Sequence record: NC_101838.1
Source of the DNA: a phage
Reading direction: 5' to 3' (one strand)
Length of the DNA stretch: 64,000 nt
Positions 40,263-54,601 of the stretch are shown piece by piece. The position numbers and the translations under genes were made by a program. The notes under the pieces were generated by a model that was given only the letters and a program-made list of their open reading frames with translations, had not been told where the DNA came from and did no database searches. Numbering within the stretch: position 1 is the first letter of the stretch; every line of letters starts with the position of its first letter.

Positions 40263-40272
40263 AGGAGGTAGG

Positions 40273-40644: not shown

Positions 40645-40720
40645 CAAGAAGTAAGATTAGATATAAGATGCTTCGCACAAACAGAGTGTTGATTTTTAAA
40701 TAACTAAGGAGACTGCTAAG

Positions 40721-40975: not shown

Positions 40976-40977
40976 TA

Positions 40978-41006
40978 CTTGACAACAGTGATGGGGCCTA
41001 ATATAA
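40978..41006 (+). promoter_or_regulatory. sigma70 consensus promoter inside the gene array
   Basis: TTGACA - 17 nt - TATAAT directly after the stop of the upstream gene. Confidence 0.5.
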
Positions 41007-41038
41007 TGGCCCTATCAAAACGAAAGGGGACCACAGCA

Positions 41039-41299
41039 ATGACCAAACAATACCAACGAATTAAAGCCAAGGTTAAGCCAGACTATCTGGAGAAAGACTC
41101 TGCTTTTCGGGACTGCACAGCCGACAAAGTTTACACAGGGACTGTCCTGTTGAACGATAAACTTGAAGTAGATGTGCTGGGTAAAGAGGCCGTTATCGAG
41201 GATGACAACGGTGACTGTGTTTTCTGCACCACACGGGAGCTAGAAGTCTTAGAATACTTCGGTGAAATCTTCAACTCTTTAGACGACGAGGAAGCGTGA
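41039..41299 (+). CDS. small paralog-family protein E
   Basis: ATG after AAAGGGGA; motif DSAFRDCT...DDNGDCVFCT. Confidence 0.45.
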   Translation: MTKQYQRIKAKVKPDYLEKDSAFRDCTADKVYTGTVLLNDKLEVDVLGKEAVIEDDNGDCVFCTTRELEVLEYFGEIFNSLDDEEA

Positions 41300-41688
41300 T
41301 GAAAAATATTTGGGATATTGATATCTTTGAAGCCTCTAAGCTTGACGGTGCTGATGGAGTTATTATGGTGTCTGATGGCAAGGCAACACTAACTTCCGGA
41401 GATATCATCTATGCCTTGGACGAGCTGGCGCTTCTGAAATCTACCGGTAACACTTTAGAGGAGCGTCTTCAAGGCTTCGCCTTCAAAGAAGGTACAAATA
41501 CCGCCATGATGTGCACCACACGGACAGTTCAGGTTGGTAACGGTGTCTATATGATCATTGCGGTGTGTTATAAATTCAGCAACGTCAATAAAGATGATGC
41601 TGACGCTGTCAACGATGTGGTTGTTCTCTTCGTAGGTGACGCTATGGCAGACCTGATGAATGCAGGAGAAGCGGCAAATGAAGACTGA
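41296..41688 (+). CDS. hypothetical protein (130 aa)
   Basis: ORF track; ATGA overlap. Confidence 0.5.
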   Translation: MMKNIWDIDIFEASKLDGADGVIMVSDGKATLTSGDIIYALDELALLKSTGNTLEERLQGFAFKEGTNTAMMCTTRTVQVGNGVYMIIAVCYKFSNVNKDDADAVNDVVVLFVGDAMADLMNAGEAANED

Positions 41689-41980
41689 AAACATTACCCC
41701 AGCAGGGTTCTTAAAAGTATACCGTGAACTGCTATATACTACAGAGGACAGTGTTCTAGAGTATCCAGAATATCTTTTGCTGTATAAGTATCTGCAGGAG
41801 GCTGGTGAAAATCTGCCAGTTAGTGCAGAAGGTGGTCCGAACTGGATATACAGCGCATGGAGAAAGGTTGACATTCTCCCAGATCCAGGTAAAGATATGG
41901 TAGTTTGGCAGCTTATCAACAACATTGGGATTCCAATCTTTGATGAAGCTGTTAAAATCTATTTTGAACTTGACGATTAA
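41678..41980 (+). CDS. hypothetical protein (100 aa)
   Basis: ATG after AGGAGAAG within ORF 41660..41980. Confidence 0.45.
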   Translation: MKTENITPAGFLKVYRELLYTTEDSVLEYPEYLLLYKYLQEAGENLPVSAEGGPNWIYSAWRKVDILPDPGKDMVVWQLINNIGIPIFDEAVKIYFELDD

Positions 41981-41997
41981 TATCAGGAGACCTTAAG

Positions 41998-42243
41998 ATG
42001 ACTGAAGTAGTTGCTCGCGCAGGACAGAAAGTACGTTGTGTTGAAGTAGGTTTTGGTGGCAAAGGGTGTCAAAACTTGACTCAAGGTAAGGAATACGCTG
42101 TTATTTCTGGTGGTGGCGACGAAAGTATTGTGTTCGAGGGCCACATCCTGGATGCTGAAAACTTTGAAATCTTTGACGACGATGGGGATCCAATCACCTG
42201 CCTGCTGGACGGGAATTGGGGAACTTTCGAAGTGATTGGCTAA
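41998..42243 (+). CDS. small paralog-family protein F
   Basis: AGGAGAC SD; Gly-rich beta-like motifs similar to A-E. Confidence 0.5.
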   Translation: MTEVVARAGQKVRCVEVGFGGKGCQNLTQGKEYAVISGGGDESIVFEGHILDAENFEIFDDDGDPITCLLDGNWGTFEVIG

Positions 42244-42326
42244 CAAATACCTATTGTAATTTGCAGAAGGGGATGCTAAAATAGTGTCTCCTTCTATGTT
42301 GTTCAAATAAAATCGGAGATTCCATA

Positions 42327-42692
42327 ATGGAACAAATGAACGATCAAGCGTCGGTTGCGATGAACGAGCAAGAACAACCTCAAGAATTTTTCTTAGGGTT
42401 AAGTAAAGATCAAGTGTCTCTTCTACTAGTGCTTTCTTCTTTCATGGGAAGACTTCAGGAGCTCACACAACAACCAGAGGCTGAACAATTATTTCAAGCT
42501 CTGCGTGAAGAAGAAAAATATCGTCGTTTGGACTATGCCTTAGGTTGGGTAGCTCAACAACGAGATATGCTGATGGCCCTCTCTGGGACCACAAGTTTTG
42601 CAATGGGGCTGTTGGCTCAAGTTCAGGACAAATTAATTCAAGCAGGGTTTGCACACACGGCAAACACTAACGAAGAACAAGGAGACAAATAA
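42327..42692 (+). CDS. hypothetical protein (121 aa)
   Basis: ORF track. Confidence 0.5.
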   Translation: MEQMNDQASVAMNEQEQPQEFFLGLSKDQVSLLLVLSSFMGRLQELTQQPEAEQLFQALREEEKYRRLDYALGWVAQQRDMLMALSGTTSFAMGLLAQVQDKLIQAGFAHTANTNEEQGDK

Positions 42693-43918
42693 TGAGCGTT
42701 ATTCAACAATTCGCTAACCCGATGAATCCGCGTGAAACTGTTTTACTGGCTCACGGCATGATTAAACGTGTCAGCATCAAGCCTATCAAAGGTGCTGATC
42801 CTACAACAGGTATTAAAACCACTGTGTGGCAAGGTAAGAAAATTGAATCCAGCCACACCATCTCTTTACTGATTTCTGAACTGGATTCCTCTGATAACCT
42901 GCTTCAAGGTGGTGAAGAAGTTTGGATCAGCATGGGTGATAAGCTGCTTAAACCTGGTCATCAAGACTCTGTCTCTGTTAAAATTGATGACAAGTGGGAA
43001 ACCGTAACGCCGGGATGGATCGTAAATATCCCTTTGAAGGCAAACGAGCATAACGGTAAGACCTATTACAAAGGCTCACTGGCTAAGATGGTCAAGCTGG
43101 GTGCAGGAGAGGCTCCAGCAGCGACTCAGCAGCAAAAACAGCAACAAGGTGCACAATCACAAGGCCAGAAGCAGAAACCTCAGCAGAATGCCAATCAGGA
43201 CGTTTTACGCATCTATGGCGATGTGACTCAGATTGTTGGCAACGTGGTTACTGTTAATGACCACAAGATTGGCGAAGGTGCTATGGTTGTAACTGATGAG
43301 CAGCTTAAAGACCTGGTGGTAGGTGGTCGTGTTGCAGCCATTGTTGACAAAGACACCGGAAACATTATCAGTGGTTTCAAAGCCTATCCCCCTAAGGCAG
43401 AGAACGGCACTCAAGGCTCCGGTGGCAAGCGTAAATCCTCTTACGACCCTATCGGTGTGGAAACGGGGCATAGCATCAATGCGTTGCAGATCATCCTGGA
43501 TCGCGGGTTTAAGGTAGACGACCCACTGGGCGTGGCTAAAACACTGCACGTAGTCACCATTGAGCTTAAGAAAGAGTATGCTCAAGCCACCAACCGAACT
43601 GAAGATGAAGTAGGTGCCAGTGTCGGTAATGCGGTGTTGAACGCTTGTCGCCGTATTGACAAGAAAACGAAAGTTGATGATTTTGCAGCGGCAATTACTG
43701 CAGAAGCAAAAGATGTCTTGACTAATCTGGCTGAACCGTTGTACGATTGGATCAAGAACGGTGCTGGGTCAACTGACTATCAAGAACCCCAGGCTGCCAA
43801 ACAGGAAGCAGCTCCACAGCAAAACACTGTAGACGCTCCTCCTGTAAATGATGAGGAAGATGACCCAATGGATCAGAATCCAGCACAGTACACCTTTGAT
43901 GATGACATCCCTTTTTAA
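42692..43918 (+). CDS. single-stranded DNA-binding protein-like, with SSB-type acidic C-terminal tip
   Basis: C-terminus ...YTFDDDIPF matches the bacterial SSB tail DDDIPF; Gln/Pro-rich linker precedes it. Confidence 0.55.
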   Translation: MSVIQQFANPMNPRETVLLAHGMIKRVSIKPIKGADPTTGIKTTVWQGKKIESSHTISLLISELDSSDNLLQGGEEVWISMGDKLLKPGHQDSVSVKIDDKWETVTPGWIVNIPLKANEHNGKTYYKGSLAKMVKLGAGEAPAATQQQKQQQGAQSQGQKQKPQQNANQDVLRIYGDVTQIVGNVVTVNDHKIGEGAMVVTDEQLKDLVVGGRVAAIVDKDTGNIISGFKAYPPKAENGTQGSGGKRKSSYDPIGVETGHSINALQIILDRGFKVDDPLGVAKTLHVVTIELKKEYAQATNRTEDEVGASVGNAVLNACRRIDKKTKVDDFAAAITAEAKDVLTNLAEPLYDWIKNGAGSTDYQEPQAAKQEAAPQQNTVDAPPVNDEEDDPMDQNPAQYTFDDDIPF

Positions 43919-43933
43919 CATCTAGTTAACATA

Positions 43934-43961
43934 GCCCTGCCCGAAAGGGTGGGGCATTTTT
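43934..43961 (+). terminator. intrinsic terminator (copy 2 of repeated hairpin)
   Basis: GCCCTGCCC-GAAA-GGGTGGGGC followed by ATTTTTG; same hairpin as 33799. Confidence 0.55.
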
Positions 43962-43980
43962 GTATAAGGAGATCTGAAAA

Positions 43981-44397
43981 ATGACATTAGAAGATATCAT
44001 TGTTAAGCCTGAGAACTATGACCAATACAACCTGTCAACTCAATCTGTAGACCTTGGATGCGCCACGGTCAGTGCGTGGCTGGTTAACGGAAAAGAGCTG
44101 GATAAATGCTTAGAAGCTCACATGTCTATTAACAAGTTTCTGGATGAAAATACTCACTGGCTTGAGGGTGCAGGCGTATATGCTTCATGGTTGGATAGTA
44201 TGGGATTCGACTACCAATCTGAAGAGGGGTGGTGGAGCTATTTAGCTATCTGTCCAGAGACGCTACAATGCTTCATGAAATATTCTGAAGATTTGGAGTA
44301 CCGGGCGGTGGTTGATAGTGCTATTGCCCGTTATAGCCGTAAACCTTTTTCCCACGACATTAAAACTGTGGAAGAATTTGTTGAAGTTTTCTGTTGA
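43981..44397 (+). CDS. hypothetical protein (138 aa)
   Basis: AAGGAGA SD. Confidence 0.5.
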   Translation: MTLEDIIVKPENYDQYNLSTQSVDLGCATVSAWLVNGKELDKCLEAHMSINKFLDENTHWLEGAGVYASWLDSMGFDYQSEEGWWSYLAICPETLQCFMKYSEDLEYRAVVDSAIARYSRKPFSHDIKTVEEFVEVFC

Positions 44398-44493
44398 CAC
44401 AGATTGAAAGGTGTGCAATTATAACTTCATAGAACGGGAGGACGTGATGAACGAAGAAAACTGGGATGTATAACTAACAGGAGGCCACTGCCC

Positions 44494-44691
44494 ATGATTT
44501 ATCGAATCCGTGTAAGAGAAGATGCACCAGGCTGTTACTTTGACTGGCGTGGGTGGTGGTTTATCCACCCAATGGATGGACTCACAGATAGAATGCTGGA
44601 TGCTGCCCTTTACACAGATACCGACATAGAATATAATCTCTATCTGAAGGACGGTATAGATAACGGCCTGTTTGAAGCAATTCCTGTGTAA
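44494..44691 (+). CDS. hypothetical protein (65 aa)
   Basis: AGGAGG SD. Confidence 0.4.
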   Translation: MIYRIRVREDAPGCYFDWRGWWFIHPMDGLTDRMLDAALYTDTDIEYNLYLKDGIDNGLFEAIPV

Positions 44692-44759
44692 GAGACTGTG
44701 ATAGCTATGTTTTATGATCTTCCTGTAGCGCCACCACCTGTTGAACCAGGAGAACTAAG

Positions 44760-45185
44760 ATGATCTATGAAATGCCAAAACTGATTCGTGACGATGCCCA
44801 AAACGCTCACACCATTATTATGGGCAAACGCATGGATATTATTTGTCATAAAGATTTCTGGGAAGGAAGTTACTTCACAGAGTATTTTGGTAAACTGGAC
44901 AATGGTCTGCTGATCCAGTTCTACACCGATGCGGAAAACAACATTCCCTGGGAGTTCGAAACTGAAGATGTCCATAAACTTTTCACCTTCCTCGGTATTA
45001 AGGTTAAGGCCAAGTTTGAAGAAGGTGAGTGCGACGATTGTGGATTTTATGAGGTAACAGATTTCTACCTTCCTAGCGGTAAGAACCTTTACTATGAAAG
45101 CCACTTCGGTAACTCCAATATGCCACAGTGCTGGACTGAGTTTTTTGAAATTGCGGAAGAGGAGCTGGCTTACCGTGATTATTGA
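44760..45185 (+). CDS. hypothetical protein (141 aa)
   Basis: ORF track. Confidence 0.5.
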   Translation: MIYEMPKLIRDDAQNAHTIIMGKRMDIICHKDFWEGSYFTEYFGKLDNGLLIQFYTDAENNIPWEFETEDVHKLFTFLGIKVKAKFEEGECDDCGFYEVTDFYLPSGKNLYYESHFGNSNMPQCWTEFFEIAEEELAYRDY

Positions 45186-45633
45186 TACTGTAGAGGGAGA
45201 TTTAATCTCCCTTTTTAAGAGCGGTGCTGGTCACCTGATCCACGGTTGTAACTGCTTCCACACAATGGGCAAGGGTATAGCAAAACAGATTGCCCGTGAG
45301 TTTCCTCAAGCACTGTCAGCCGACAAAGAGACTAGATACGGTTGCCTAAGTAAACTGGGTGCGTTCTCCCGATGGGAGCACTTATCTCCGGTAGGTATTG
45401 TCTACGGAATCAATCTATATACCCAGTTCTACCCAGGACCTAATGCTGAGTATTTCTCAATCCTGAAAGGCTTTGAGCTAGTCAATGAAGTATTCAGCGG
45501 ATCGACTTTACCATTCTACATCCCTAAGATCGGGTGCGGCATAGGCGGTTTGAAGTGGGAACACGTAGAGGACGTTATTAACCTTGCCACTTTCGACATA
45601 GATATTGTCGTGGTGGAGTACAAAAAGTGTTGA
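45175..45633 (+). CDS. macro-domain protein (ADP-ribose binding/processing)
   Basis: Motifs GDLIS...HLIHGCNC...MGKGIA and IGCGIGGL typical of macro domains; GTG start 10 nt after GGAAGAGGAG, overlapping upstream stop. Confidence 0.6.
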   Translation: MIIDTVEGDLISLFKSGAGHLIHGCNCFHTMGKGIAKQIAREFPQALSADKETRYGCLSKLGAFSRWEHLSPVGIVYGINLYTQFYPGPNAEYFSILKGFELVNEVFSGSTLPFYIPKIGCGIGGLKWEHVEDVINLATFDIDIVVVEYKKC

Positions 45634-45884
45634 CGACCATCTTCTGAGGTGATATAGTTTCCACGACAACTAAGAGAGGAGAGCACTGTGGAGACTAAAA
45701 TCTTAATTCTTGCTGTGGTAGATACAACCGAAGGAGCTATATTCGAATCTGCAGGAGGGTATTTCTACCTACCATACGGAAAAAGAACTTCCGAGCCAGG
45801 TAAAGATTCAATCCTCAAAGTGTTCCCGTGTGCTTTCTGGCTGGAGATTTTGGTATAAGATTGCAGAGGATTTGGGAGAGAATT

Positions 45885-46079
45885 ATGAGAAACAAGAAAG
45901 AACTTTACTCCGGTGAGTGGATCAACGATCAACAGGTGGGAGAGGTAACCTGCTTCCGATGTTTTACCAGGTACAATCTTAAAACTGCACCAAAAAGTGT
46001 TCCAAAGACTGACGGTTACTACATAAAAGAACCTCATTGCCCAAAATGTAAATGCCGATTGTACTGGAGCAATCTGTAA
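45885..46079 (+). CDS. small zinc-ribbon-like protein (64 aa)
   Basis: ATG after GGGAGAG; CxxC ... CxxC pairs. Confidence 0.4.
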   Translation: MRNKKELYSGEWINDQQVGEVTCFRCFTRYNLKTAPKSVPKTDGYYIKEPHCPKCKCRLYWSNL

Positions 46080-46142
46080 GAGGTTGACATCTGAAAACTG
46101 CAGTGTATAATATACGCATAAACTAACAGAGGGTGATGTATT

Positions 46143-46344: not shown

Positions 46345-46677
46345 ATGGTAACATTGGAAAGACGTAAAGCTATTGCCGCCACACTGGCAGACATCTTTTG
46401 GGATTGTAATTTAAAATCTACCCGAAATTGTGGTGCATCTGTAGATGTATTATTCCCACGGCCTACTATTGTTGCAATGGGCAACCTGCTCGATGTGGTA
46501 TATGGAGCATGGGACAAGGAAGGTGGATTCTATATCTGGCAACCTGACTACGGGACTTGGAAAGAGGTTAGTGGTTCTTCGGACTTCACTCCTGCAGTGG
46601 CTAAAATGGATGGCTGGAAAATCTATGTCGGTAACGACATGGAACTGAAAGGCGAAATTGTTTACTGGTTACCTTAA
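46345..46677 (+). CDS. hypothetical protein (110 aa)
   Basis: ORF track. Confidence 0.45.
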   Translation: MVTLERRKAIAATLADIFWDCNLKSTRNCGASVDVLFPRPTIVAMGNLLDVVYGAWDKEGGFYIWQPDYGTWKEVSGSSDFTPAVAKMDGWKIYVGNDMELKGEIVYWLP

Positions 46678-46698
46678 GAAAGTCCAGGAGATAAAGTT

Positions 46699-46944
46699 AT
46701 GAACAAAGGGTGGACATTTGTAGACGGCGTTAAAAACATGCCTCTAGGAAAGTATATTGTAGCCATGGCAGATGAGAATGGCAAGGTTGATTTCGGAGTT
46801 TGCGAGGTTGTTCTTGCAGGATCTGGTGACTATGCTCACAAAACTGGGATAATTAACGGTCATTTCTACTTTGATTACAACCCTGTTGTGGCGTATATGG
46901 CTATGCCAGAGTTCGAGCTCCCAAAGGAAGGTGCAGATGTTTAA
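46699..46944 (+). CDS. small paralog-family protein G
   Basis: CAGGAGA SD; Gly-rich motif similar to 39.5-42.3 kb family. Confidence 0.45.
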   Translation: MNKGWTFVDGVKNMPLGKYIVAMADENGKVDFGVCEVVLAGSGDYAHKTGIINGHFYFDYNPVVAYMAMPEFELPKEGADV

Positions 46945-47134
46945 GCTTAAATCTGCATGGAACATCGCTGTGGGGGACGAGATCCGTATCCCAGGTGGAA
47001 AGACCATTATGAAAATATCTCGTATCGAGTACGAAGGTGATCGTGTATTTCATATCTTTGCAGAAGATGGTCGAGAAATTTATATACAGGCAGGCTCTCA
47101 CATCTATATTCGTAAGAAAGGGGAGGACAAATGA
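46937..47134 (+). CDS. hypothetical protein (65 aa)
   Basis: ATG after AAGGAAGG, overlapping upstream stop. Confidence 0.4.
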   Translation: MFKLKSAWNIAVGDEIRIPGGKTIMKISRIEYEGDRVFHIFAEDGREIYIQAGSHIYIRKKGEDK

Positions 47135-47460
47135 CAGAGATCATCATTTCAACTGCAGGGTATGTATTCCTGACAATCATTGCGCTGGCTATTCTGGTGG
47201 CGGTGTATGGATTTGTTATCCTTCCTATCCTTGAGACATTTAGTTTGTGTCGGTGTTGGAGAAAAGCTTACGGTCCACAACCATGGAAGGACTGGCCCCA
47301 CCTGGTGCGCTTAGCGTTCTCTTATGCTTACGATCACTCCAGTAGTGCATGCATAACCGGATACCACGCCCACAACTGGAGCTGGGAAGGGTTGAGGAAA
47401 TGGAATGTTACAAAGACCATACCTCTGCGCATGTACAAACCTAAAAACAAAGACAACTGA
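47131..47460 (+). CDS. small membrane protein (109 aa)
   Basis: ATGA overlap; N-terminal transmembrane segment. Confidence 0.45.
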   Translation: MTEIIISTAGYVFLTIIALAILVAVYGFVILPILETFSLCRCWRKAYGPQPWKDWPHLVRLAFSYAYDHSSSACITGYHAHNWSWEGLRKWNVTKTIPLRMYKPKNKDN

Positions 47461-47499
47461 TACTTGAAAATTCCTGGCATATCAAGTATAAGGGGGATT

Positions 47500-47960
47500 T
47501 CTAAAATGGATTTCCTCCTTTTGATATTTCACCGGGCTGGATATTTTAAAATTCTTAGAAAATCAGAAAATGGATCGAAAACTAAAATGGATTTTTCAGA
47601 GTAGGCGCGACAAGCTGAATAACTCATCCTATCGTTTGCACCATATTCCAGGCCACCATTATAGATTTCCCACACATGCTAACCTCCCTCTACTAGAACT
47701 TCCTCCACTTACCCTTGACCTTCTATGGTAACAATCTAACCGCTATCTTGAAGTTGCGGTGCAGCTTTCCAGGTACTCGATCTACTTTTCATTTCAGGGC
47801 TTGGATTTTCTGAAAATTTTTCTCGATAAATTTCTCAGTACTCGATCTGTTTTTCGTTTTCTGAATCGGATTTTCTGGAAATCGTTCCGGCTCTCAACCT
47901 GAAATTTTTGGGGACGAAATCGATTTTTCGTTTTCAGAAATGGATTTTTAAAATTTCTAT
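47500..47960. repeat. non-coding iteron-like region: at least 5 copies of TGGATTTT(T)C plus a 30-bp direct repeat
   Basis: AAATGGATTT(T)C-type motifs at about 47505, 47570, 47585, 47795, 47870, 47940; CAGGTACTCGATCT...TTTC repeated at 47770 and 47836; no ORF. Confidence 0.5.
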
Positions 47961-48063
47961 ATGGGAATATTTTAGTGGATACTATTTTATAGTAAATTGT
48001 TACGGAGGGTAATTAGCGTGCTAATTAAATTTATTAAATGCGAGGAGTTCTCATTTAGAATCT

Positions 48064-48290
48064 TGAATGATAATCATTCTCGTTTGCAGAATAACGGGCA
48101 GGCCCGGTGATTGTCTCCCGGCCCCTGTTGCCCCGGCTTGTTATTATAGTATCACACAGGACAAAGAAAGCAAGGATTTTTTGCATAAATTTTTAAATGA
48201 TAATGATAACCGTTCTCATTTTATGCAGCGCTCATCCCTGGTGGTTGTCTCCCCCGTCACCGGTGCCTGCCGTCCTTTCGATAGGTATAT
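48064..48290 (+). repeat. two tandem degenerate units, each ending in a GC-rich element containing TTGTCTCCC
   Basis: AATGATAAT...GCAG then CCCGGTGATTGTCTCCC (48103-48119) and GGTGGTTGTCTCCCCCGTCACCGGTGCCTGC (48241-48270). Confidence 0.45.
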
Positions 48291-48473
48291 TGTGCCACCT
48301 GTCGGGGCCGCTGTCAACACTTTTCAAAAAATTTTTCTAACCTGATGCGCTAACCGCTGCAACCTGGCGGGGCCAGCCTGGCAGGACCTAACTGACCAGG
48401 TGGGAGAGGGTGAAATCTTGCAAACCTGGTAGGCCCATGCTGTAGGGTAAACAATTGAAGAGGAGGTACAAAA

Positions 48474-48611
48474 ATGAAAGGTAATGCTACTCACCTGGGA
48501 AATGTAGTGATTAATGATACAGAAGCGCGGGAACATAAAGAAGAGTACGAAAAAATGGTGGTTAACCTGGCGGGGGGGCGGCAGGTGGATTCTATCATAA
48601 AAATAATTTAA
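48474..48611 (+). CDS. small hypothetical protein (45 aa), not in ORF track
   Basis: ATG 7 nt after GAGGAGG; open for 45 codons. Confidence 0.4.
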   Translation: MKGNATHLGNVVINDTEAREHKEEYEKMVVNLAGGRQVDSIIKII

Positions 48612-48619
48612 AATAATCG

Positions 48620-48647
48620 TTGACAACAAGGTTAATCATGGTATTAT
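48620..48647 (+). promoter_or_regulatory. sigma70-like promoter
   Basis: TTGACA - 16 nt - TATTAT. Confidence 0.4.
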
Positions 48648-48697
48648 TACCCTACAAGGTGAACAACACCGCACTAACCAGTAAAGAGGATAAATTT

Positions 48698-48895
48698 ATG
48701 AACGCATACGGGATCAAAGTACGTCGCAACACTCGCCAGGTGGTCACCGATCAAATGGTTTGCCAGGTGGACGTAACCATCAACAACGGGCAAGGCCTTT
48801 ATAAATTCCGTCGCGGTCAGAGCTATACCCGGCAACAGCTTAATCGTTGCGCCCTGACAAAAGGACAGATCAACCACTGGTTTAATAAAAAATAA
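48698..48895 (+). CDS. hypothetical basic protein (65 aa)
   Basis: ATG after AAAGAGGA; within ORF 48620..48895. Confidence 0.5.
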   Translation: MNAYGIKVRRNTRQVVTDQMVCQVDVTINNGQGLYKFRRGQSYTRQQLNRCALTKGQINHWFNKK

Positions 48896-48898
48896 GTA

Positions 48899-48927
48899 TT
48901 GACATATAGTCCGACACCAAATACACT
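48899..48927 (+). promoter_or_regulatory. sigma70-like promoter
   Basis: TTGACA - 17 nt - TACACT. Confidence 0.45.
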
Positions 48928-48959
48928 AAAAGCACAAAAGACACTAAGAGGATAAAATC

Positions 48960-49358
48960 ATGAAAACCACTACCTTTAATTTTGATAATGCGGACTTTTC
49001 TTTTTCTGATGTCAAGAACTGCCGCCGTGATCGTGGATTTTACAAGGCTTATAATCTGGTGGGCCTGGACGATGACAATAATTTGCACGAAGTAGCTGAG
49101 ATCCGGTATTATGCCGCCGTCAGCGGGAACACTCACTACTGCGTGTTTTGGATTCACGACAACAAGAACAATAAGTACGGTTATACTGGCGGCAAGGCGA
49201 GCGGTCACGGTTACGATAAAGCTAACGCAGCACTTGAGAGCGCATTAAATGCTATGGGGATCACTGCCGACGGCTGGATCTACGAAGAAGAGTTTTTGTC
49301 GGCACTTGCTGACCACCTGGGCTATAAAAAACACATTGTAACATGCGCCCACGAATAA
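48960..49358 (+). CDS. hypothetical protein (132 aa)
   Basis: AAGAGGA SD; own promoter. Confidence 0.55.
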   Translation: MKTTTFNFDNADFSFSDVKNCRRDRGFYKAYNLVGLDDDNNLHEVAEIRYYAAVSGNTHYCVFWIHDNKNNKYGYTGGKASGHGYDKANAALESALNAMGITADGWIYEEEFLSALADHLGYKKHIVTCAHE

Positions 49359-49364
49359 AAATCA

Positions 49365-49392
49365 TTGACACGCTGCAAAATTTAAGTAAACT
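49365..49392 (+). promoter_or_regulatory. sigma70-like promoter followed by 5' leader hairpin
   Basis: TTGACA - 16 nt - TAAACT; GGCGGGAA-TGT-TTCCCGCC hairpin at 49403-49421. Confidence 0.45.
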
Positions 49393-49440
49393 AGACACAA
49401 AAGGCGGGAATGTTTCCCGCCAGCACAAAGGAAAAAGATC

Positions 49441-49836
49441 ATGAATAAGAACGTACGCCGCATCATGAACGAACTGGCAAACGATGAAAAAATTATTGAT
49501 ATGCATTTGGTCAACATTTGCCGCCGTTGTGTAACATATAACAACCGCGCCGCAAAAGCGCGTGAGATGAACGCAAAAGGCACCTTAAAGCCCTTTCAGG
49601 TGGTTGTAAAATCTATAACTAGCGCAGCAGGCCAGGCGCAGGACCACAACAACGAGAGCGCTAATATTGATCCGTCTTACGTAATGAAACGGATCCGGAC
49701 TTGCAAGAATAAAGAGCAGGTATATAACGTCATAGATTGGCTGGACTCCCTGGGCGATGTGGTTTACAATAGGTTTTCTGCAGCTATCGAGATCCAGCTT
49801 GACAGATTGGACGGGAAAGTACTAAAAACTTATTGA
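49441..49836 (+). CDS. hypothetical protein (131 aa)
   Basis: AAAGGAAAAAG SD-like; ORF track. Confidence 0.55.
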   Translation: MNKNVRRIMNELANDEKIIDMHLVNICRRCVTYNNRAAKAREMNAKGTLKPFQVVVKSITSAAGQAQDHNNESANIDPSYVMKRIRTCKNKEQVYNVIDWLDSLGDVVYNRFSAAIEIQLDRLDGKVLKTY

Positions 49837-49838
49837 GT

Positions 49839-49883
49839 TTATTTTTAGATGGCCTTGACACCAGGGCCATCAATAAAGTAAAC
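49839..49883 (+). promoter_or_regulatory. 45-bp conserved element copy 1 (palindrome GATGGCC-N10-GGCCATC with TTGACA in loop)
   Basis: TTATTTTTAGATGGCCTTGACACCAGGGCCATCAATAAAGTAAAC; near-identical at 50460 and 54194. Confidence 0.5.
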
Positions 49884-49916
49884 TAACCACAGTTGAGCGG
49901 AAAAGGAGGCTTAAAG

Positions 49917-50036
49917 ATGAGCACTACACGCCAGCACACAAAGGTAACCATCATCGTTTGCATCATTGGGTACATCCTGGCGCAAATGTTGATGGGTAGC
50001 GCCAACGGTGTCGCAAAATTTTTCTTAAACTTTTAA
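49917..50036 (+). CDS. small hydrophobic protein (39 aa), not in ORF track
   Basis: ATG 6 nt after AAGGAGG; predicted single transmembrane helix. Confidence 0.4.
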   Translation: MSTTRQHTKVTIIVCIIGYILAQMLMGSANGVAKFFLNF

Positions 50037-50064
50037 TTGACAAGCTAACTTAAATCGATATAAT
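50037..50064 (+). promoter_or_regulatory. sigma70 consensus promoter followed by 5' leader hairpin
   Basis: TTGACA - 16 nt - TATAAT; GGGAA-AAC-TTCCC hairpin at 50077-50089. Confidence 0.6.
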
Positions 50065-50115
50065 AAGCACATAAACGGGAAAACTTCCCAGAACACACAA
50101 AAGGAGAAAAACACC

Positions 50116-50457
50116 ATGACTACTATGACCGCCTCAGAAAAAGCTATGCAGATCGCTGAACTGAAAAAACAGATCGCAGACCTTGAGAATAAGATCGATA
50201 ACTTTGAAATCGACGAGGACAAGTACGACGAAAACTATGATGAATGGTTAGACGAGATCTACGGCGAAATTATGATCGGAAACATTTCTTTTCTTCCGTC
50301 GCGTATCCTCAAGGAGCTAGATCCTATCGCTTACCGCTGCGGATTTAGCGACTACATCGACAGCCTGGATATTGAGGACGATGAAGAATACCAGGAATTA
50401 CAGACAGAGTTAGAAGAAGCAAAAGAAGAGCTTGCGGAGCTGGAAGAAAACGAGTAA
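50116..50457 (+). CDS. highly acidic small protein (113 aa)
   Basis: AAAAGGAGA SD; roughly 30 percent Asp+Glu, predicted coiled coil. Confidence 0.55.
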   Translation: MTTMTASEKAMQIAELKKQIADLENKIDNFEIDEDKYDENYDEWLDEIYGEIMIGNISFLPSRILKELDPIAYRCGFSDYIDSLDIEDDEEYQELQTELEEAKEELAELEENE

Positions 50458-50459
50458 GC

Positions 50460-50504
50460 TTATTTTTAGATGGCCTTGACACCAGGGCCATCAATAAAGT
50501 AAAC
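50460..50504 (+). promoter_or_regulatory. 45-bp conserved element copy 2
   Basis: Identical to copy 1 across about 44 nt. Confidence 0.5.
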
Positions 50505-50546
50505 TTTATACTGTTAACACTGAACTAATGCATAGGAGTTAAAACC

Positions 50547-50792
50547 ATGGCAGCACTAATCACCAAATATTATGCCCCTACCAACACCAAAAGCGCCCGT
50601 ATCATGGTAAAAGGCTTCGGACGTAAAAAGGTGTACACCTGGGATTATGCCTTAGACATGGAAGACAACTACACCAACGCAATGACCGATTTTATTAATG
50701 AACTAAATAAGCAGATCTTGACAAGTTATAAAGTGACCGATATTGCTTATATAGGTGAAGGCGGGATCTGTTTTGTAGGCATTGTGAAATAG
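50547..50792 (+). CDS. hypothetical protein (81 aa)
   Basis: TAGGAG SD. Confidence 0.5.
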   Translation: MAALITKYYAPTNTKSARIMVKGFGRKKVYTWDYALDMEDNYTNAMTDFINELNKQILTSYKVTDIAYIGEGGICFVGIVK

Positions 50793-50866
50793 TTATTTTT
50801 TCGGTGGTCCTGGCTGCAGGGCCATCTATAAAGATAATTTATCAACACCATGAAAGGAGAAAGTAC

Positions 50867-51220
50867 ATGATCAGCGGGGCTAGTTTTATTATTGGCGCTA
50901 TTGCTACGGCTTTAATTGTAAACAAGATCCAATCTAAAAACGAAAAAGATAGCAACGCGCTCACAGAATACCCATTTTGGGTATTCAACGACAACGAAGA
51001 CTACATAATCAAGTACAAAGATGAGAGAGGCGACCAGGTAACACCGCGACCGATCCCAGCTTACAAGATGCAGGAAACACTATACCGCCTAAAGGCCGGA
51101 GGCGCAAAGATCGTAGACTTTTGGGGATATGATTGCAAGGATCAGGAGGTCATAAAACGTCGTATCCGGGCGATTCAGGCAAATATTGAAATTAGTAAAG
51201 GGGAAATTTATGAAAATTAA
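50867..51220 (+). CDS. membrane protein (117 aa)
   Basis: ATG after GAAAGGAGAAAG; N-terminal transmembrane helix. Confidence 0.5.
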   Translation: MISGASFIIGAIATALIVNKIQSKNEKDSNALTEYPFWVFNDNEDYIIKYKDERGDQVTPRPIPAYKMQETLYRLKAGGAKIVDFWGYDCKDQEVIKRRIRAIQANIEISKGEIYEN

Positions 51221-51407
51221 TTTCGAAAAAATTGTAAAGCGCCCCCACGATTCCGAAGAGCTGCCGGAACGCCGCCAGCGTAACAATAAACTGAATAAAC
51301 CGAAAAGGTTCGGGAAGATCTGGAGGAATCACTATGATCGCAAATTACCGGGCCTGCTTTTGGAACGTGAACGACAGGCGGAACGATACCGCCACAAAGG
51401 CAAATAA
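51210..51407 (+). CDS. small basic protein (65 aa)
   Basis: ATG after AAAGGGGA, overlaps upstream gene end. Confidence 0.35.
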   Translation: MKINFEKIVKRPHDSEELPERRQRNNKLNKPKRFGKIWRNHYDRKLPGLLLERERQAERYRHKGK

Positions 51408-51415
51408 CAACCAAC

Positions 51416-51442
51416 GCCCCGCCATTGTGCGGGGCTTTTTAT
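51416..51442 (+). terminator. intrinsic terminator
   Basis: GCCCCGC-CATTGT-GCGGGGC followed by TTTTTATTT. Confidence 0.55.
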
Positions 51443-51577
51443 TTCTATCCTACGAATAGCGCCCCTGGTTGGCCCCACAAACGCCACAAAAGCCCCTACC
51501 TATGCAATCCCCTTTCTTAGCCTGAAAACATCACCCAGGACCGTTTTATGGTGTTAAAAATATCTTTTATTTAAAGC

Positions 51578-51606
51578 TTGACACCTTGGAATCGCCTGGA
51601 TATACT
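51578..51606 (+). promoter_or_regulatory. sigma70-like promoter
   Basis: TTGACA - 17 nt - TATACT. Confidence 0.5.
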
Positions 51607-51641
51607 AACCACATCAAAGCAAGAAGAAAGGAGTAAACGCC

Positions 51642-51902
51642 ATGCGTAAATTAAAAAATTTTGATAAAGTCGATGTTGTCCTGAATAATTTTTACTACTG
51701 CAATAATAAGGCCGTTTGGTGGCGTGATAGTTCCACCGATAAAGTTAAAGCGCGCTTTCTCCAGGGGCACTGGCAAGGCCGCCCAGTGATTAAGATCCGG
51801 GGGCAATTGGTAGCGTTTAAAAATTGCCGCCGTGTTGATGACGTTGAAGAGATTCTAAACATTTTACGCCACAATAATTTAAAAAATAGTGTTGACAAGT
51901 AA
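51642..51902 (+). CDS. hypothetical protein (86 aa)
   Basis: AAAGGAG SD. Confidence 0.5.
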   Translation: MRKLKNFDKVDVVLNNFYYCNNKAVWWRDSSTDKVKARFLQGHWQGRPVIKIRGQLVAFKNCRRVDDVEEILNILRHNNLKNSVDK

Positions 51903-51919
51903 GCCTCAATAAGTATACT
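51892..51919 (+). promoter_or_regulatory. sigma70-like promoter followed by 5' leader hairpin
   Basis: TTGACA - 16 nt - TATACT overlapping upstream stop; GGCGGGAA-AAC-TTCCCGCC at 51930-51948. Confidence 0.5.
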
Positions 51920-51976
51920 TAAACACACAGGCGGGAAAACTTCCCGCCACTAACAAAGAAAATAGGAGAAAATATC

Positions 51977-52600
51977 ATGACCACCGTTAACATTACCGCA
52001 GGTTACAATTTATCTTTCGACGTGCTGACCGACGAACAAAAAGAAAAAGCCGTTGAAATGGTCCGCGAAAGAGAAGAACACAGCGGGGATAACTTTTTTG
52101 CAGAAAGTGTAATTGAATACTATAAAGAATATGTTTTTCCAGAGTATGGCCTTGAAGATACCGAAGTACATTGGTCAGGCTTTTGGTGCCAGGGTGACGG
52201 CGCGTCAATCAGTGCTGAAAACGTGGATTTAGAAAAATTTTTGCGTAAAGTAAAGGCCCTGACCAAGTTCCGATCAATTCGTCACTTGTTCGGCACAATG
52301 CACGATGGCGAGTTATCAGCCAGTGTTGAGCGTGATCCATATAGCCGCTATAGTCACGAAAACACTGTAAGCGGATACATTGATACCACCTGGCTAGATC
52401 TGACCGCCAAACAAGAAAACAAAGTGGAAGACCTGGAAGAGCTGATCACCGAGACGGTACGGGAGCTATCCCGCAAGGTTTACGTAGACCTGGAGGAGGC
52501 CTATCTTGAACAGTTTACTACCGAAAACCTGATCGGCCTTATTGAGGCCAATGATTGGCGGTTTGATGTGGATGAATATGGCGAGATGACTTTTTCATAA
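51977..52600 (+). CDS. acidic hypothetical protein (207 aa)
   Basis: ATAGGAGA SD; ORF track. Confidence 0.55.
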   Translation: MTTVNITAGYNLSFDVLTDEQKEKAVEMVREREEHSGDNFFAESVIEYYKEYVFPEYGLEDTEVHWSGFWCQGDGASISAENVDLEKFLRKVKALTKFRSIRHLFGTMHDGELSASVERDPYSRYSHENTVSGYIDTTWLDLTAKQENKVEDLEELITETVRELSRKVYVDLEEAYLEQFTTENLIGLIEANDWRFDVDEYGEMTFS

Positions 52601-52608
52601 ATAAAGTG

Positions 52609-52636
52609 TTGCAATAACCTAAAAACCTGCTATATT
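52609..52636 (+). promoter_or_regulatory. sigma70-like promoter followed by 5' leader hairpin
   Basis: TTGCAA - 16 nt - TATATT; GGGGCAA-GACGT-TTGCCCC at 52647-52665. Confidence 0.45.
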
Positions 52637-52689
52637 AAAACTCAAGGGGGCAAGACGTTTGCCCCACACAAAACAAAGAGGAAAACATT

Positions 52690-53070
52690 ATGAAAAACAC
52701 TACCAAGGCTATTGACACCGTTATGTTTAACCTGGTTACATTCCGTGAAGATATGAAAGATCTTCCACGTGAAACAGTGTGCGATCACATTGAAAACTAT
52801 CGCAAACTAATCAAAGAGTTGCCCCTAAAACGTGACCAGTATGCGGCTAACGCTATGCTCAACGCCATGATCAAAAAGATGATCCAGTGTGATTTAACCC
52901 TGGCCTATGACTATGCGGGTGGTCGTTTTGCAGTATACAATCAGCCCGTGCCTGGTATGGGCACCACCGAAGAATTGCACGCGCTCAATCTAAAACAAGA
53001 CGTATGGGATAACATGCCCCGCGTGGTGGTGTGGGCAGAAAGCGGAAAGATTTACGGCGATAATTTTTAA
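52690..53070 (+). CDS. hypothetical protein (126 aa)
   Basis: AAAGAGGA SD. Confidence 0.55.
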   Translation: MKNTTKAIDTVMFNLVTFREDMKDLPRETVCDHIENYRKLIKELPLKRDQYAANAMLNAMIKKMIQCDLTLAYDYAGGRFAVYNQPVPGMGTTEELHALNLKQDVWDNMPRVVVWAESGKIYGDNF

Positions 53071-53079
53071 TCAGGTAAC

Positions 53080-53106
53080 AGGCGGCAAATATGCCGCCTT
53101 ATTGTT
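53080..53106 (+). terminator. putative intrinsic terminator
   Basis: AGGCGGCA-AATA-TGCCGCCT followed by TATTGTT. Confidence 0.45.
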
Positions 53107-53134
53107 AAACAGAACTGCAAAAGAGGTACATAGA

Positions 53135-53506
53135 ATGGAATTTATTATTTTGGCTGTAGTAGTTGCCTTGTTCAACGCCTGGATCGCTGGCAAGATGGGT
53201 AGATCCGCCTTTTTATGGTTTATTATATCTATTTTCCTGGGGGTGGTTGCAACTATTGTACTTGTTATCCTTGCAATTGTTGACAAGGGGAATAATAGAA
53301 AGGGTAAAGTATTTTCAGACCTGTACGACGCTCAAACGTTTGTCAACGCCTATTATAGTGATCTTCCAGTCTCCCTACGCTGCAGCCTGGCACAACAAGT
53401 TTTCGATGAGGCTAAAACCAGAGATCAAGCCCATGAGATATGTTTAACTGAGGCGGATCGCCTATTTGAGAGGAATAGAAAATATGTGGGCCAACCGTTT
53501 AAATAA
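53135..53506 (+). CDS. membrane protein (123 aa)
   Basis: ATG after AAAGAGG; two hydrophobic helices. Confidence 0.5.
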   Translation: MEFIILAVVVALFNAWIAGKMGRSAFLWFIISIFLGVVATIVLVILAIVDKGNNRKGKVFSDLYDAQTFVNAYYSDLPVSLRCSLAQQVFDEAKTRDQAHEICLTEADRLFERNRKYVGQPFK

Positions 53507-53725
53507 TGCCACGTTAATTAATCCCTTTAGTGAAGATTTGAAGCCAGCCGCCTGGCGTGATGGATTCAATAACGAACGCTTTATTTTCAAGCCTGATCTT
53601 GAGGAATTTTATAACAATGGATCGAACAACGACAGAGATAATTTTTCTTGTGGTGTGCGTAGTGATGGTACTCCTGGGGGCCATTGTAAACCACGTCACT
53701 ACTAACAGGGGGAAAGGGGGAGACG

Positions 53726-53845
53726 ATGACACCCAAGGATAAGCCCCGCACCGATAAGGCGCGCCGTGTTATGGTATGGCTTGAGATCATCGCCCTTGAA
53801 ATATTGTTAGGGGTAGGGATGTACTTTATCGCTGTAAGTAACTAA
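53726..53845 (+). CDS. small membrane protein (39 aa), not in ORF track
   Basis: ATG after GGGGGAGACG; hydrophobic C-terminal half. Confidence 0.35.
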   Translation: MTPKDKPRTDKARRVMVWLEIIALEILLGVGMYFIAVSN

Positions 53846-53849
53846 GAAC

Positions 53850-53878
53850 GGCCCCCCGATCATGGGGGCCTATCTTTT
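53850..53878 (+). terminator. intrinsic terminator
   Basis: GGCCCCC-CGATCAT-GGGGGCC followed by TATCTTTT and an A14 tract. Confidence 0.55.
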
Positions 53879-53905
53879 AAAAAAAAAAAAAATTCTTCCG
53901 GGGTG

Positions 53906-53934
53906 TTGCAATCCGGTCCGGAATGTGGATAATA
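53906..53934 (+). promoter_or_regulatory. sigma70-like promoter followed by leader hairpin
   Basis: TTGCAA - 16/17 nt - GATAAT; GGGGA-GCTAA-TCCCC downstream. Confidence 0.4.
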
Positions 53935-53989
53935 ACAATCAACGGGGAGCTAATCCCCACCACCACAAAAACCAGAAAGGAGAAACAAA

Positions 53990-54190
53990 ATGAGCAACAA
54001 TATCCGCGTTATTAACTTCAAAAAAGAAGAAAAAATTGCCGTGCTGATTGACGGTCAAGAAATCTTCAAGGGCGACTATGAAGATCATCAAACGGCGATT
54101 AGTATCACTCGCGTGATTGGTTACCATAATTTTTACCCCCAAGGCGCTGAGGCAGCGGTTAAACGAATCAAAGAGATTGTAGGCCTGTAA
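53990..54190 (+). CDS. hypothetical protein (66 aa)
   Basis: AAAGGAGAAA SD. Confidence 0.5.
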   Translation: MSNNIRVINFKKEEKIAVLIDGQEIFKGDYEDHQTAISITRVIGYHNFYPQGAEAAVKRIKEIVGL

Positions 54191-54193
54191 AAT

Positions 54194-54236
54194 TTATTTT
54201 TAGATGGCCTTGACTCCAGGGCCATCAATAAAGTAA
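54194..54236 (+). promoter_or_regulatory. 45-bp conserved element copy 3
   Basis: TTATTTTTAGATGGCCTTGACTCCAGGGCCATCAATAAAGTAAA, one mismatch to copies 1 and 2. Confidence 0.5.
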
Positions 54237-54284
54237 ATTTAAACCCTGTTAAAAATACCACGCAGTTAACAAGGAGTGATAGAC

Positions 54285-54584
54285 ATGTTTATCCAGGCTA
54301 ATAATCTTTATTTCTTTGATGGTCAGATCGTAGACGGTGTGGAAGTGGAGATCACCGGGTGCCCTGGCGGTCAGGCTATGACTTTTCGGAATAATGCCTT
54401 TGATGATTCTCATATCGTTATGAGAATGGAAGTTACGAAGCTGGACGACAAGAAAACACTTATTGACTATTCTGTGAAAGATCATCCAGACTACCGCATG
54501 ATCCATGGCGATTTGTGCATTGTTGACCGTGACAAGGTGGGCGGCATTGTGATCGCTATTGTGAACGATGTTTTCTCAAACTAA
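54285..54584 (+). CDS. hypothetical protein (99 aa)
   Basis: ATG after AAGGAG. Confidence 0.5.
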   Translation: MFIQANNLYFFDGQIVDGVEVEITGCPGGQAMTFRNNAFDDSHIVMRMEVTKLDDKKTLIDYSVKDHPDYRMIHGDLCIVDRDKVGGIVIAIVNDVFSN

Positions 54585-54601
54585 TTTCAGCAGGTGATTT
54601 T

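Follow-up and report, generated by a model that had tools for sequence, protein, structure and literature searches.

A conserved gene-free region of rV5-like phages with iterons, leftward promoters and Fur-type boxes: a possible transcription-activated replication origin

Introduction

The T7 primary origin of replication consists of the tandem promoters phi1.1A and phi1.1B together with an AT-rich tract, and oriF and oriG of T4 each combine a promoter with a downstream unwinding element and are primed from an R-loop. Iteron origins, such as lambda ori and those of P1, RK2 and pSC101, are built on direct repeats with a ~20-bp core, set ~20–24 bp apart next to an AT-rich tract, in DNA that is intrinsically bendable. 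Here we describe a gene-free stretch of 1013 bp (47461–48473, with a stop codon at 47460 and the next start codon at 48474) in a Vequintavirus, an rV5-like lytic myovirus and coliphage; the DNA analysed, which we call the window, comprises 64,000 nt of sequence record NC_101838.1. The repeats in the left half of this stretch are best explained as part of a ~1-kb essential cis-acting module (47490–48385) common to rV5-like phages, and we tentatively favour, with somewhat less than even confidence, reading that module as a transcription-activated replication origin with input from the host regulator Fur.

Like the T7 and T4 origins, the locus has two tandem promoters pointing into untranslated AT-rich DNA, in a phage with a T7-type replisome. 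Unlike them, it has promoters of the host sigma70 type that run against all neighbouring genes, as well as three 70-bp iterons and Fur-type boxes that are lacking in T7 and T4; there is no sequence similarity, and the role as an origin is here a predicted one. With the iteron origins it shares the ~20-bp core direct repeats beside an AT-rich tract and the intrinsic bendability of the repeat DNA, but it has only three copies, 65–74 bp apart rather than ~20–24 bp, no recognised adjacent initiator gene and no conserved DnaA box. An origin or control region made up of iterons, promoters and host-factor boxes is of a known kind; what is unusual is that strictly lytic phages should have a conserved array of Fur boxes.

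A conserved cis-acting element of about 1 kb

The phage is 99.8% identical to HdK5, and over 46500–49500 the same identity is found to HdK5, nom and CarlMeissner, with 124 phage records matching in a DNA search. An earlier note, made from the letters alone, had described about 500 bp without an open reading frame (ORF) and proposed an origin of replication or a multi-site regulatory region. The non-coding character is borne out, but the stretch is twice as long as was thought (1013 bp, of which the note covered the left half), and mechanical ORFs of 46–53 aa do occur in it, with GenBank records annotating differing ones or none. The clearest regulatory features all lie to the right of the DNA that the note had considered; they are the Fur-type boxes, a pair of sigma70 promoters that point leftward and a divergent promoter that points rightward.

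In an alignment of eight Vequintaviruses, whose gap regions are 85–93% identical to that of the window, the conserved blocks of the stretch are 94–97% identical with 86–91% invariant columns, as against 84–92% identity and 52–81% invariant columns in the flanking genes (Table 1). Because this conservation exceeds that of the coding neighbours, we regard the non-coding region as being under purifying selection. With a sensitive DNA search, 48021–48182 remains recognisable (72–88%) in many other genera. The Fur-box region has no meaningful match in E. coli genomes in a DNA search, and in IMG/VR the conserved core is found on only five contigs.

The same design extends well beyond the genus. We compared the intergenic regions of PVP-SE1 and R7 (Seunavirus), Mydo (Mydovirus), PcCB7V, PBES 02 and KaOmega (Certrevirus), Hena1 (Henunavirus), phiWec181 and anhysbys (Phapecoctavirus), and ChuuTotoro and ABPH49 (Vequintavirinae with no genus assigned). 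All 11 of these genomes share the layout in identical order, and a Serratia-phage group is among those that have it. A hairpin after the last rightward gene is followed by two to three copies of GATATTTG, a GAAAT(N)-type array and a variable C-rich spacer; then come three direct units, AATGAGAATCATTCTCATT palindromes, a GC-rich core of the form CrGGCA-N5-GGTGwTTGTCT and promoter-like elements. The earlier proposal is supported in part: the stretch is a functional, multi-site, cis-acting non-coding element, it is conserved above the flanking genes, and its architecture is kept in at least eight genera. Clustering of GATC was considered as a further universal feature and set aside: it is strong in Certrevirus and in the Serratia-phage group, with only three GATC in 1 kb in the window.

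Could hidden small protein genes explain the conservation, for example an ORF198-like frame at 48067–48345 on the plus strand or one at 47675–47529 on the minus strand? Several GenBank records do annotate hypothetical proteins here, and a GGGAGG motif resembling a Shine-Dalgarno sequence precedes a minus-strand GTG. We nonetheless consider this very improbable. The annotated ORFs vary by record and in some are absent; the Vequintavirus alignment has 1–2-nt indels in the stretch, one of them a 1-nt insertion that Phage 203 carries within the widely annotated frame 48067–48345; a manual alignment count gives 7, 4 and 4 substitutions at codon positions 3, 1 and 2, respectively, which is no clear coding bias; and the other genera keep the DNA motifs without such an ORF. 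On the strength of the inconsistent annotation and the indels we treat the stretch as non-coding. The hypothetical-protein ORFs of many GenBank records, which differ from record to record and overlie iterons, Fur boxes and promoters, are probably spurious. Such ORFs are annotated at 47570–47731, 47759–47902, 47908–48012 and 48067–48345 of the window, at 1531–1958 of locus L005 (PVP-SE1 genes 203/202) and at 1621–1974 of locus L006 (Mydo gp054), and the PVP-SE1 and Mydo "genes" that cover the iterons are probably spurious, too.

Table 1. Features of the gene-free region and conservation of its blocks among Vequintaviruses (window coordinates).
Feature	Position	Strand	Basis or detail	Mean pairwise identity
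Hairpin, 11-nt arms, overlapping the stop codon of the upstream gene	47457–47492		Inverted repeat I15	
Intrinsic-terminator-like hairpin AAGGGGGA...UUCCUCCUU, then U-rich UUGAUAUUU	47490–47529	+	RNA fold (hairpin 47490–47520)	
Short-repeat block, as aligned	47497–47600			94%
Short-repeat block: GATATTT twice (47523, 47540), GAAAAT/ATTTTC half-sites including AAAATGGAT at 47566 and 47583	47523–47600	+	Repeats, 8-mer enrichment	
C-rich, G-poor variable spacer	47601–47771		GC skew down to −0.65; composition kept, sequence not	72%, indels
Iteron unit 1: core AGGTACTCGATCTACTTTTC, then TTGGATTTTC, then A/T tract	47763–47827	+	Repeat analysis	
Three iteron units, as aligned	47772–47965			95%
Iteron unit 2: AAATTTCT-CAGTACTCGATCTGTTTTTC-GTTTTC-...CGGATTTTC	47828–47901	+	Repeat analysis	
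Iteron unit 3: AAATTTTT-GGGGACGAAATCGATTTTTC-GTTTTC-...TGGATTTTT	47902–47965	+	Repeat analysis; degenerate core; can fold a small hairpin	
AT-rich linker, candidate DNA-unwinding tract	47966–48036		GC 25–27% over 47900–48050	
Fur box A, core and PL1, as aligned	48037–48175			96%
Weak Fur-type box AATGCGAGGAGTTCTCATT, 29 bp before box A	48037–48055		14.4 bits	
Candidate rightward promoter TTGAAT-N18-CAGAAT, box A in spacer	48063–48092	+	Read from sequence; below scan threshold, weakly supported	
Fur-type box A AATGATAATCATTCTCGTT	48066–48084		28.3 bits; E. coli register 48063–48081, 15/19 match	
GC-rich core A, CrGGCA-N5-GGTGATTGTCTCC	48093–48135		Invariant columns	
Predicted promoter PL1, sigma70, TTGCTT (48173–48168)-N16-TGa-TACTAT (48151–48146), extended −10	48146–48173	−	Read from sequence; predicted start ~48139	
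Fur box B, core and PL2, as aligned	48176–48320			97%
Fur-type box B AATGATAACCGTTCTCATT	48202–48220		26.6 bits; E. coli register 48199–48217, 16/19 match to GATAATGATAATCATTATC	
GC-rich core B GGTGGTTGTCTCC..., paralogue of core A	48224–48288		Repeats D9, D10; inverted repeat I2	
Predicted promoter PL2, sigma70, TTGACA (48317–48312)-N17-TGg-CACAAT (48294–48289), AT-rich upstream tract	48289–48317	−	Promoter scan; predicted start ~48282	
A/T tract, degenerate rightward promoter CTAACC-N17-CAACCT, leader of gene at 48474	48321–48473	+	Alignment, promoter scan	
Flanking genes	Various			84–92%

Iterons and the AT-rich linker

The three direct units are 65–74 bp long, each carries an A5T5 tract and a GGTACTCGATCnnTTTTTC core, and they are 70–74% identical over 47 nt with the common core GG(T/G)ACTCGATCnnTTTTTC. 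What had been reported earlier as a 30-bp direct repeat present twice is a genuine repeat, but it is the core of these longer units, which begin at 47763, 47828 and 47902. The 18-nt core GTACTCGATCTnTTTTTC occurs twice at no more than one mismatch, against 0.12 occurrences expected in shuffles, and nothing comparable is found elsewhere in the genome (~139 kb scanned). Among Vequintaviruses 87% of the columns in the iteron block are invariant, and in the other genera one again finds three direct units, with the consensus AAAAATTTTT-N-GG(T/G)(A/T)C-TCGATCGGTTTTTC-awwwTC and a spacing of 65–75 bp. In their number (at least three direct repeats of a ~17–22-bp core) and in the AT-rich tract beside them, these units are as expected of an iteron origin. 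A general class of phage promoters was also considered for them and rejected, as the core is found nowhere else in the ~139 kb and its −10-like part is not kept between genera.

The TGGATTT-type repeats described in the earlier note are all there, exact at 47507, 47588, 47802 and 47941 and as CGGATTT at 47867 and TGGATCG at 47570. They do not form one family: the first copy lies in the loop of the terminator-like hairpin, two belong to GAAAAT-GG-ATTTTC near-palindromes, and the other three each make up the 3' half of an iteron unit. The 8-mers AAATGGAT, AAAATGGA and ATTTTCTG are 95–119 times denser in the gene-free stretch than elsewhere in the 64 kb.

Leftward promoters and GC-rich cores

Both predicted promoters, PL1 and PL2, are oriented leftward toward the repeats, opposite to every flanking gene, and the path predicted for their transcripts crosses the Fur-type boxes, the AT-rich linker, the iterons and then the spacer. 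On the minus strand downstream of them, neither the ORF list nor the alignment contains a conserved ORF. Promoters directed into untranslated AT-rich DNA, as expected of a transcription-activated origin, are predicted here from the sequence. PL2 is invariant among Vequintaviruses and has the early-promoter form of this phage (an AT-rich upstream tract plus TTGACA), its upstream half being 93% complementary to the early promoter at 55706–55732. PL1 lies below the scan threshold in the window and depends on its extended −10.

Across genera the leftward orientation is kept. In 12 of 12 genomes at least one minus-strand sigma70 promoter scoring 9–11 lies within 330 nt to the right of the last box, and in none of them does the plus strand score higher. 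PL1 passes the scan in eight genomes, its −35 lying 104–110 nt from the last box, and PL2 passes in all 12, at 107 nt from the box in PcCB7V and at ~250–275 nt in the rest; these positions are conserved although the spacers vary. The rightward TTGAAT-N18-CAGAAT promoter is kept in most genera, though not in Phapecoctavirus. PL2 is back-to-back with the degenerate rightward promoter in the leader of the next gene, for which Certrevirus has a clear counterpart, TTGACC-N17-CACAAT. Within that leader, 48386–48450 is an indel-prone zone of ACCTGG-type repeats in which several relatives have deletions of 20–50 nt and one record labelled "Campylobacter phage" begins.

Directly to the right of the element, several other genera have a small minus-strand gene of 60–88 aa, belonging to one of three unrelated families, of which one is DUF7170 (L005 2294–2476, L006 2326–2511, L009 2317–2583, L012 2282–2491 and L003 2814–3080, all on the minus strand). 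In PVP-SE1, which was examined for this, the gene is preceded by a leftward promoter of its own. No such gene lies to the right of the element in the window, and these genes are not homologous across genera.

Promoters without downstream ORFs might suggest that the product is a non-coding RNA, either one of ~0.65–0.8 kb running leftward from PL1/PL2 or a Fur-repressed small RNA running rightward from ~48097, with the repeats as RNA motifs. Single sequences of the GC-rich core do fold, at −10 to −24 kcal/mol. On the other hand, RNAalifold gives no consensus for the core on the plus or minus strand, and a helix that we proposed by hand shows no covariation beyond shuffles, 290 of 500 shuffles being equally or more paired; a conserved RNA fold was accordingly rejected, and the core is conserved in primary sequence only. 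In Rfam the only match in the window has E = 4 and is spurious, and seven related loci have none. We therefore rate a non-coding RNA as quite improbable.

A third, inverted GC-rich core (GGAGACAATCACC) lies ~9 kb away at 57202–57242 and is 83% complementary to 48091–48125 and 76% to 48219–48255. It is preceded by TTGCAA-N16-TATACT, and 57150–57246 could form a long hairpin (−23.7 kcal/mol).

Fur-type boxes

By their sequence, the palindromes to the right of the iterons are Fur boxes. Two of those in the window (48066 and 48202) are within three mismatches of the 9-1-9 consensus AATGAGAATCATTCTCATT, against 0.05 expected, and the other genera carry one to four strong copies of this palindrome plus degenerate ones, usually 29 bp apart, the same spacing that separates 48037 from 48066 here. 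A position weight matrix built solely from 25 boxes of non-Vequintavirus genomes was used to scan 26 kb of the E. coli K-12 ent/fep cluster. Six of the six sites at or above 12 bits fall in the fepA-fes, fepD-entS and fepB-entC intergenic regions, where 0.07 would be expected by chance; the promoter regions of all three are under Fur control in E. coli. The phage consensus equals the Xanthomonas Fur-box consensus AATGAgAATcATTctCATT (PMC1790865) and contains the E. faecalis Fur box TGAGAATGATTCTCA (PMC6056675).

The boxes share with the E. coli Fur operator GATAATGATAATCATTATC the same 19-bp 9-1-9 palindrome. They differ from Fur operators in lying in gene-free DNA of a strictly lytic phage, in arrays of one to four strong boxes (two in the window), and in recurring inside the terminal repeat rather than before an iron-uptake gene. 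The window and the rest of HdK5 together hold only four boxes of at least 20 bits, two here and two (59831 and 59947) within the terminal repeat; the latter lie near its edge. In Klebsiella phage KPP-1, too, Fur-like boxes flank the terminal repeat. Our search of the literature on Fur boxes in lytic phages returned no description of them.

Host Fur would be expected, from this resemblance, to bind the boxes. Box A sits within the spacer of the weak rightward TTGAAT-N18-CAGAAT promoter and also at +55 to +73 of PL1, and box B at +62 to +80 of PL2. The HdK5 record encodes, at 115797–122685, aerobic (NrdAB) and anaerobic (NrdDG) ribonucleotide reductases, glutaredoxin and ThyX. Given these genes, nucleotide supply in the phage is iron-dependent, which may be relevant to the Fur boxes, and with NrdAB, NrdDG and glutaredoxin encoded, an interest of the phage in iron status is plausible.

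Hairpins, short repeats and the C-rich spacer

The hairpin that the earlier note placed right after the last gene is present, with arms at 47457–47467 and 47482–47492, and a second, terminator-like one follows it directly. The segment containing the first (47461–47496) is only 75% identical among Vequintaviruses, and this hairpin, being variable among relatives, probably lies outside the conserved element. The second probably ends the upstream rightward operon: its stem is kept in relatives as AGGAGGA/TCCTCCT, and other genera have a hairpin at the equivalent position, although the fold of the whole 121-nt terminator stretch has a weak z-score of −1.7. In SYGMH1 an inserted 191-aa gene (L024 426–1001), lying after the upstream gene and before the terminator hairpin, takes the place of the 47461–47496 segment; because everything from the hairpin onward is left intact, we place the left edge of the element at ~47490. 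The inserted gene is annotated as "ATP-dependent Clp protease" with no Pfam support, and may be a mis-annotated mobile gene.

Next come short repeats of the GATATTT and GAAAATGGATTTTC types, in a block that is near-invariant among Vequintaviruses (86% invariant columns). Equivalent arrays, with two to three GATATTTG and GAAAT(N) repeats, are found in PVP-SE1, Mydo, the Certreviruses PcCB7V, PBES 02 and KaOmega, and the ABPH49/ChuuTotoro pair.

The spacer behaves differently, with 1–2-nt indels and 72% identity. Its GC skew is −0.60 to −0.65 over 47621–47740, −0.63 in locus L010, −0.56 in L012 and −0.3 to −0.58 in most others. An untranslated, C-rich and G-poor stretch of at least 80 nt is what a Rho-dependent terminator calls for, and the spacer provides it; since composition is kept and sequence is not, as in Rho-loading (rut) sites, the spacer is probably a rut site acting against rightward read-through. 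As in known Rho-dependent terminators, ~150 nt of such DNA follow the end of an operon. Here, unlike there, the same composition would make the leftward transcript G-rich (over 47750–47600), and Rho dependence is a prediction.

A transcription-activated origin, or a boundary between transcription units

An origin fits this anatomy in that genome-unique iterons with A5T5 tracts, an adjacent AT-rich tract and tandem promoters directed into it occur in a phage with a T7-type replisome. The replisome, which we count in favour of an origin, comprises a DnaB/gp4-type helicase, a family A polymerase and a PIF1 helicase. As we picture it, rightward transcription of the upstream operon would be stopped by the intrinsic terminator, with Rho loading on the C-rich spacer as a backup. 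PL2 and PL1, which are of the early sigma70 class, would fire and send an untranslated RNA leftward over the Fur boxes, the AT-rich tract and the three iterons. The iterons, each beside its bendable A5T5 tract, would bind protein, assembling a phage-encoded complex, and leftward transcription would open or prime the AT-rich DNA for the T7-type replisome, much as in the T7 primary origin and T4 oriF/oriG, so that replication would start here. Host Fur-Fe2+ at the 29-bp-spaced boxes, ~55–80 nt downstream of each predicted start, would gate that transcription by iron supply.

A number of observations weigh against such an origin. GC skew does not change sign at 47–48 kb in the window, and the rV5 genome paper, which sought an origin by skew, found none and described only transcription-linked skew changes. 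DnaA boxes (TTWTNCACA) are not conserved: the window has none, and matches in the other genomes are single and scattered. The iterons, 65 and 74 bp from start to start, depart from the ~22-bp phasing (two helical turns) of classical iteron origins. The replication genes are 8 kb away, and the flanking proteins have no recognisable DNA-binding or initiator domain. Each leftward promoter has a weak hexamer in the window, the −35 of PL1 and the −10 (CACAAT) of PL2. In the Vequintavirus alignment the spacer does not keep the G-triplet clusters that an R-loop would profit from, and for this reason a rut site suits it better than a zone of R-loops. Finally, we know of no origin of which Fur boxes form a part.

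What lies on either side of the region bears on the question as well. The plus-strand gene block extends from ~21.7 kb to 58.5 kb, and its last replication gene, in a set comprising a PIF1-like helicase, a DNA methylase, a DnaB/gp4-type helicase and a family A DNA polymerase, ends at 39513. From 39.3 to 58.5 kb a promoter scan finds many small genes with upstream sigma70-type promoters, and the gene-free region sits within this stretch, ~8 kb of small genes separating it from the replication genes. The position that the earlier note gave it, at the boundary of the replication block and a small-gene module, therefore holds only loosely, with sigma70-driven small genes on both sides: what changes at the region is promoter type, not the onset of small genes. 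Sigma70 promoters at 48620–58004 carry strongly AT-rich, UP-like upstream tracts (up to 88% AT), and most of those at 39329–46084 lack them, a pattern that points to two classes of promoter on either side of the gene-free region. Pfam gives none of ten flanking proteins a DNA-binding or initiator domain, and they fall in PHROGs families with no known DNA-binding or replication role (nine unknown, one "phosphatase"); a domain search of neighbouring proteins was likewise uninformative.

Most of the same elements could be read as a purely transcriptional boundary and control region with no origin function, the main rival reading, which we consider somewhat unlikely. The terminator and rut site would then end the delayed-early/replication unit, PL2 and the rightward promoter would together, as a divergent pair, start off the immediate-early unit, the leftward RNA from PL1/PL2 would serve interference or insulation, the iterons and short repeats would be operators for a phage regulator, and the Fur boxes would provide an iron response. 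The terminator-like hairpin, the C-rich spacer, the well-formed promoters and the palindromic, operator-like Fur boxes are all elements of transcription; box A, in the TTGAAT-N18-CAGAAT spacer, occupies the classic position for repression by Fur; and AT-rich upstream tracts mark the promoters to the right of the region and mostly not those to the left. For a simple boundary, however, 700 nt of near-invariant DNA is far more than is needed, three genome-unique 70-bp direct repeats with A5T5 tracts are atypical as operators, and the rightward box-A promoter is not kept in Phapecoctavirus.

Among the small genes to the right, a 49-nt early-promoter module is present in four copies (49836–49884, 50457–50505, 50791–50839 and 54191–54239), 73–98% identical to a reference copy. 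The modules carry a GGCC...GGCC hairpin within the promoter spacer and resemble the promoter-early stem-loops of T4-type phages.

Genome ends and the second gene-free region

HdK5 and EdH4 have terminal redundancies of 458 bp. The HdK5 repeat maps to 59516–59974 of the window and the ends of the HdK5 record to 59516–59994, within a second gene-free region of ~2.5 kb (58502–61005) where the rightward and leftward gene blocks converge; because the HdK5 redundancy maps there, the physical genome ends are placed in 58502–61005. The first gene-free region was also considered as a genome end or packaging site, and this was rejected, the 458-bp repeat lying 11.5–12.5 kb away. The terminal repeat of KPP-1 has no similarity to the window, and its counterpart, judged from distance and gene orientation, is the other non-coding region. 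In 58502–61005 there are also four GATATTT (59925, 60078, 60244 and 60259) and, at 60878, a minus-strand promoter directed at the repeat.

The distance to the genome end invites comparison with T5, whose untranslated repeat regions include an injection stop signal (iss) (Davison, bioRxiv 10.1101/866236). By analogy, our region could act as a DNA-entry checkpoint that holds the DNA until early proteins have acted. The last ~11.5 kb beside one end, with its small genes and strong sigma70 promoters, would enter first, and PL1/PL2 would be the only inward-pointing promoters able to assist the uptake of what remains. Box A is separated from the HdK5 end by 8.3% of the genome, as compared with a first-step transfer of 7.9% in T5. 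In both phages, moreover, ~1 kb of untranslated DNA, rich in repeats and palindromes and located ~8% from an end, is conserved above the neighbouring ORFs and carries ordered arrays of boxes for a host protein; the inverted GC-rich core 9 kb away recalls the IRC/IRD' pairs of T5; and Fur boxes also occur inside the terminal repeat. The parallel is incomplete, however. The boxes here are of the Fur type, with no array of DnaA boxes, and the region is outside a terminal repeat that is only 458 bp and not 10 kb long. No two-step transfer has been reported for rV5-like phages, sigma70 promoters are found to the left of the region as well, and the match of 8.3% to 7.9% may be coincidence. We consider a checkpoint improbable.

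Two points concern the records themselves. Some 16–17 records labelled "Campylobacter phage" (host C. jejuni) are ~94% identical to the window, which is from an E. coli phage, and their host label looks doubtful. Record PQ002170, filed under Demerecviridae, is identical to PVP-SE1 in this region.

Implications

The rV5-like phages (Vequintavirinae, Stephanstirmvirinae) are widely used in phage therapy and biocontrol against E. coli, Salmonella and Klebsiella. The literature that we searched on rV5 origins and termini gives no description or role of this region. For these phages, the present analysis delimits a deeply conserved 1-kb cis-element with named parts, each of which can be mutated or subjected to binding assays.

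The box arrays in at least eight genera, found both in the putative control or origin region and in the terminal repeat, lead us to a more speculative proposal, which we put forward as an unlikely but interesting one: strictly lytic rV5-like phages may have wired Fur, the iron sensor of the host, into their DNA metabolism. Fur-Fe2+ would gate leftward transcription and, through it, origin firing or genome processing. As the phage ribonucleotide reductases need iron, replication would thereby be made conditional on the iron supply. Another possibility is that the boxes, once amplified, would titrate Fur, and host iron uptake would then be derepressed. If Fur does bind, these would be virulent phages that read the iron status of the host by way of the host's own repressor, which would bear on their efficacy at iron-limited sites of infection.

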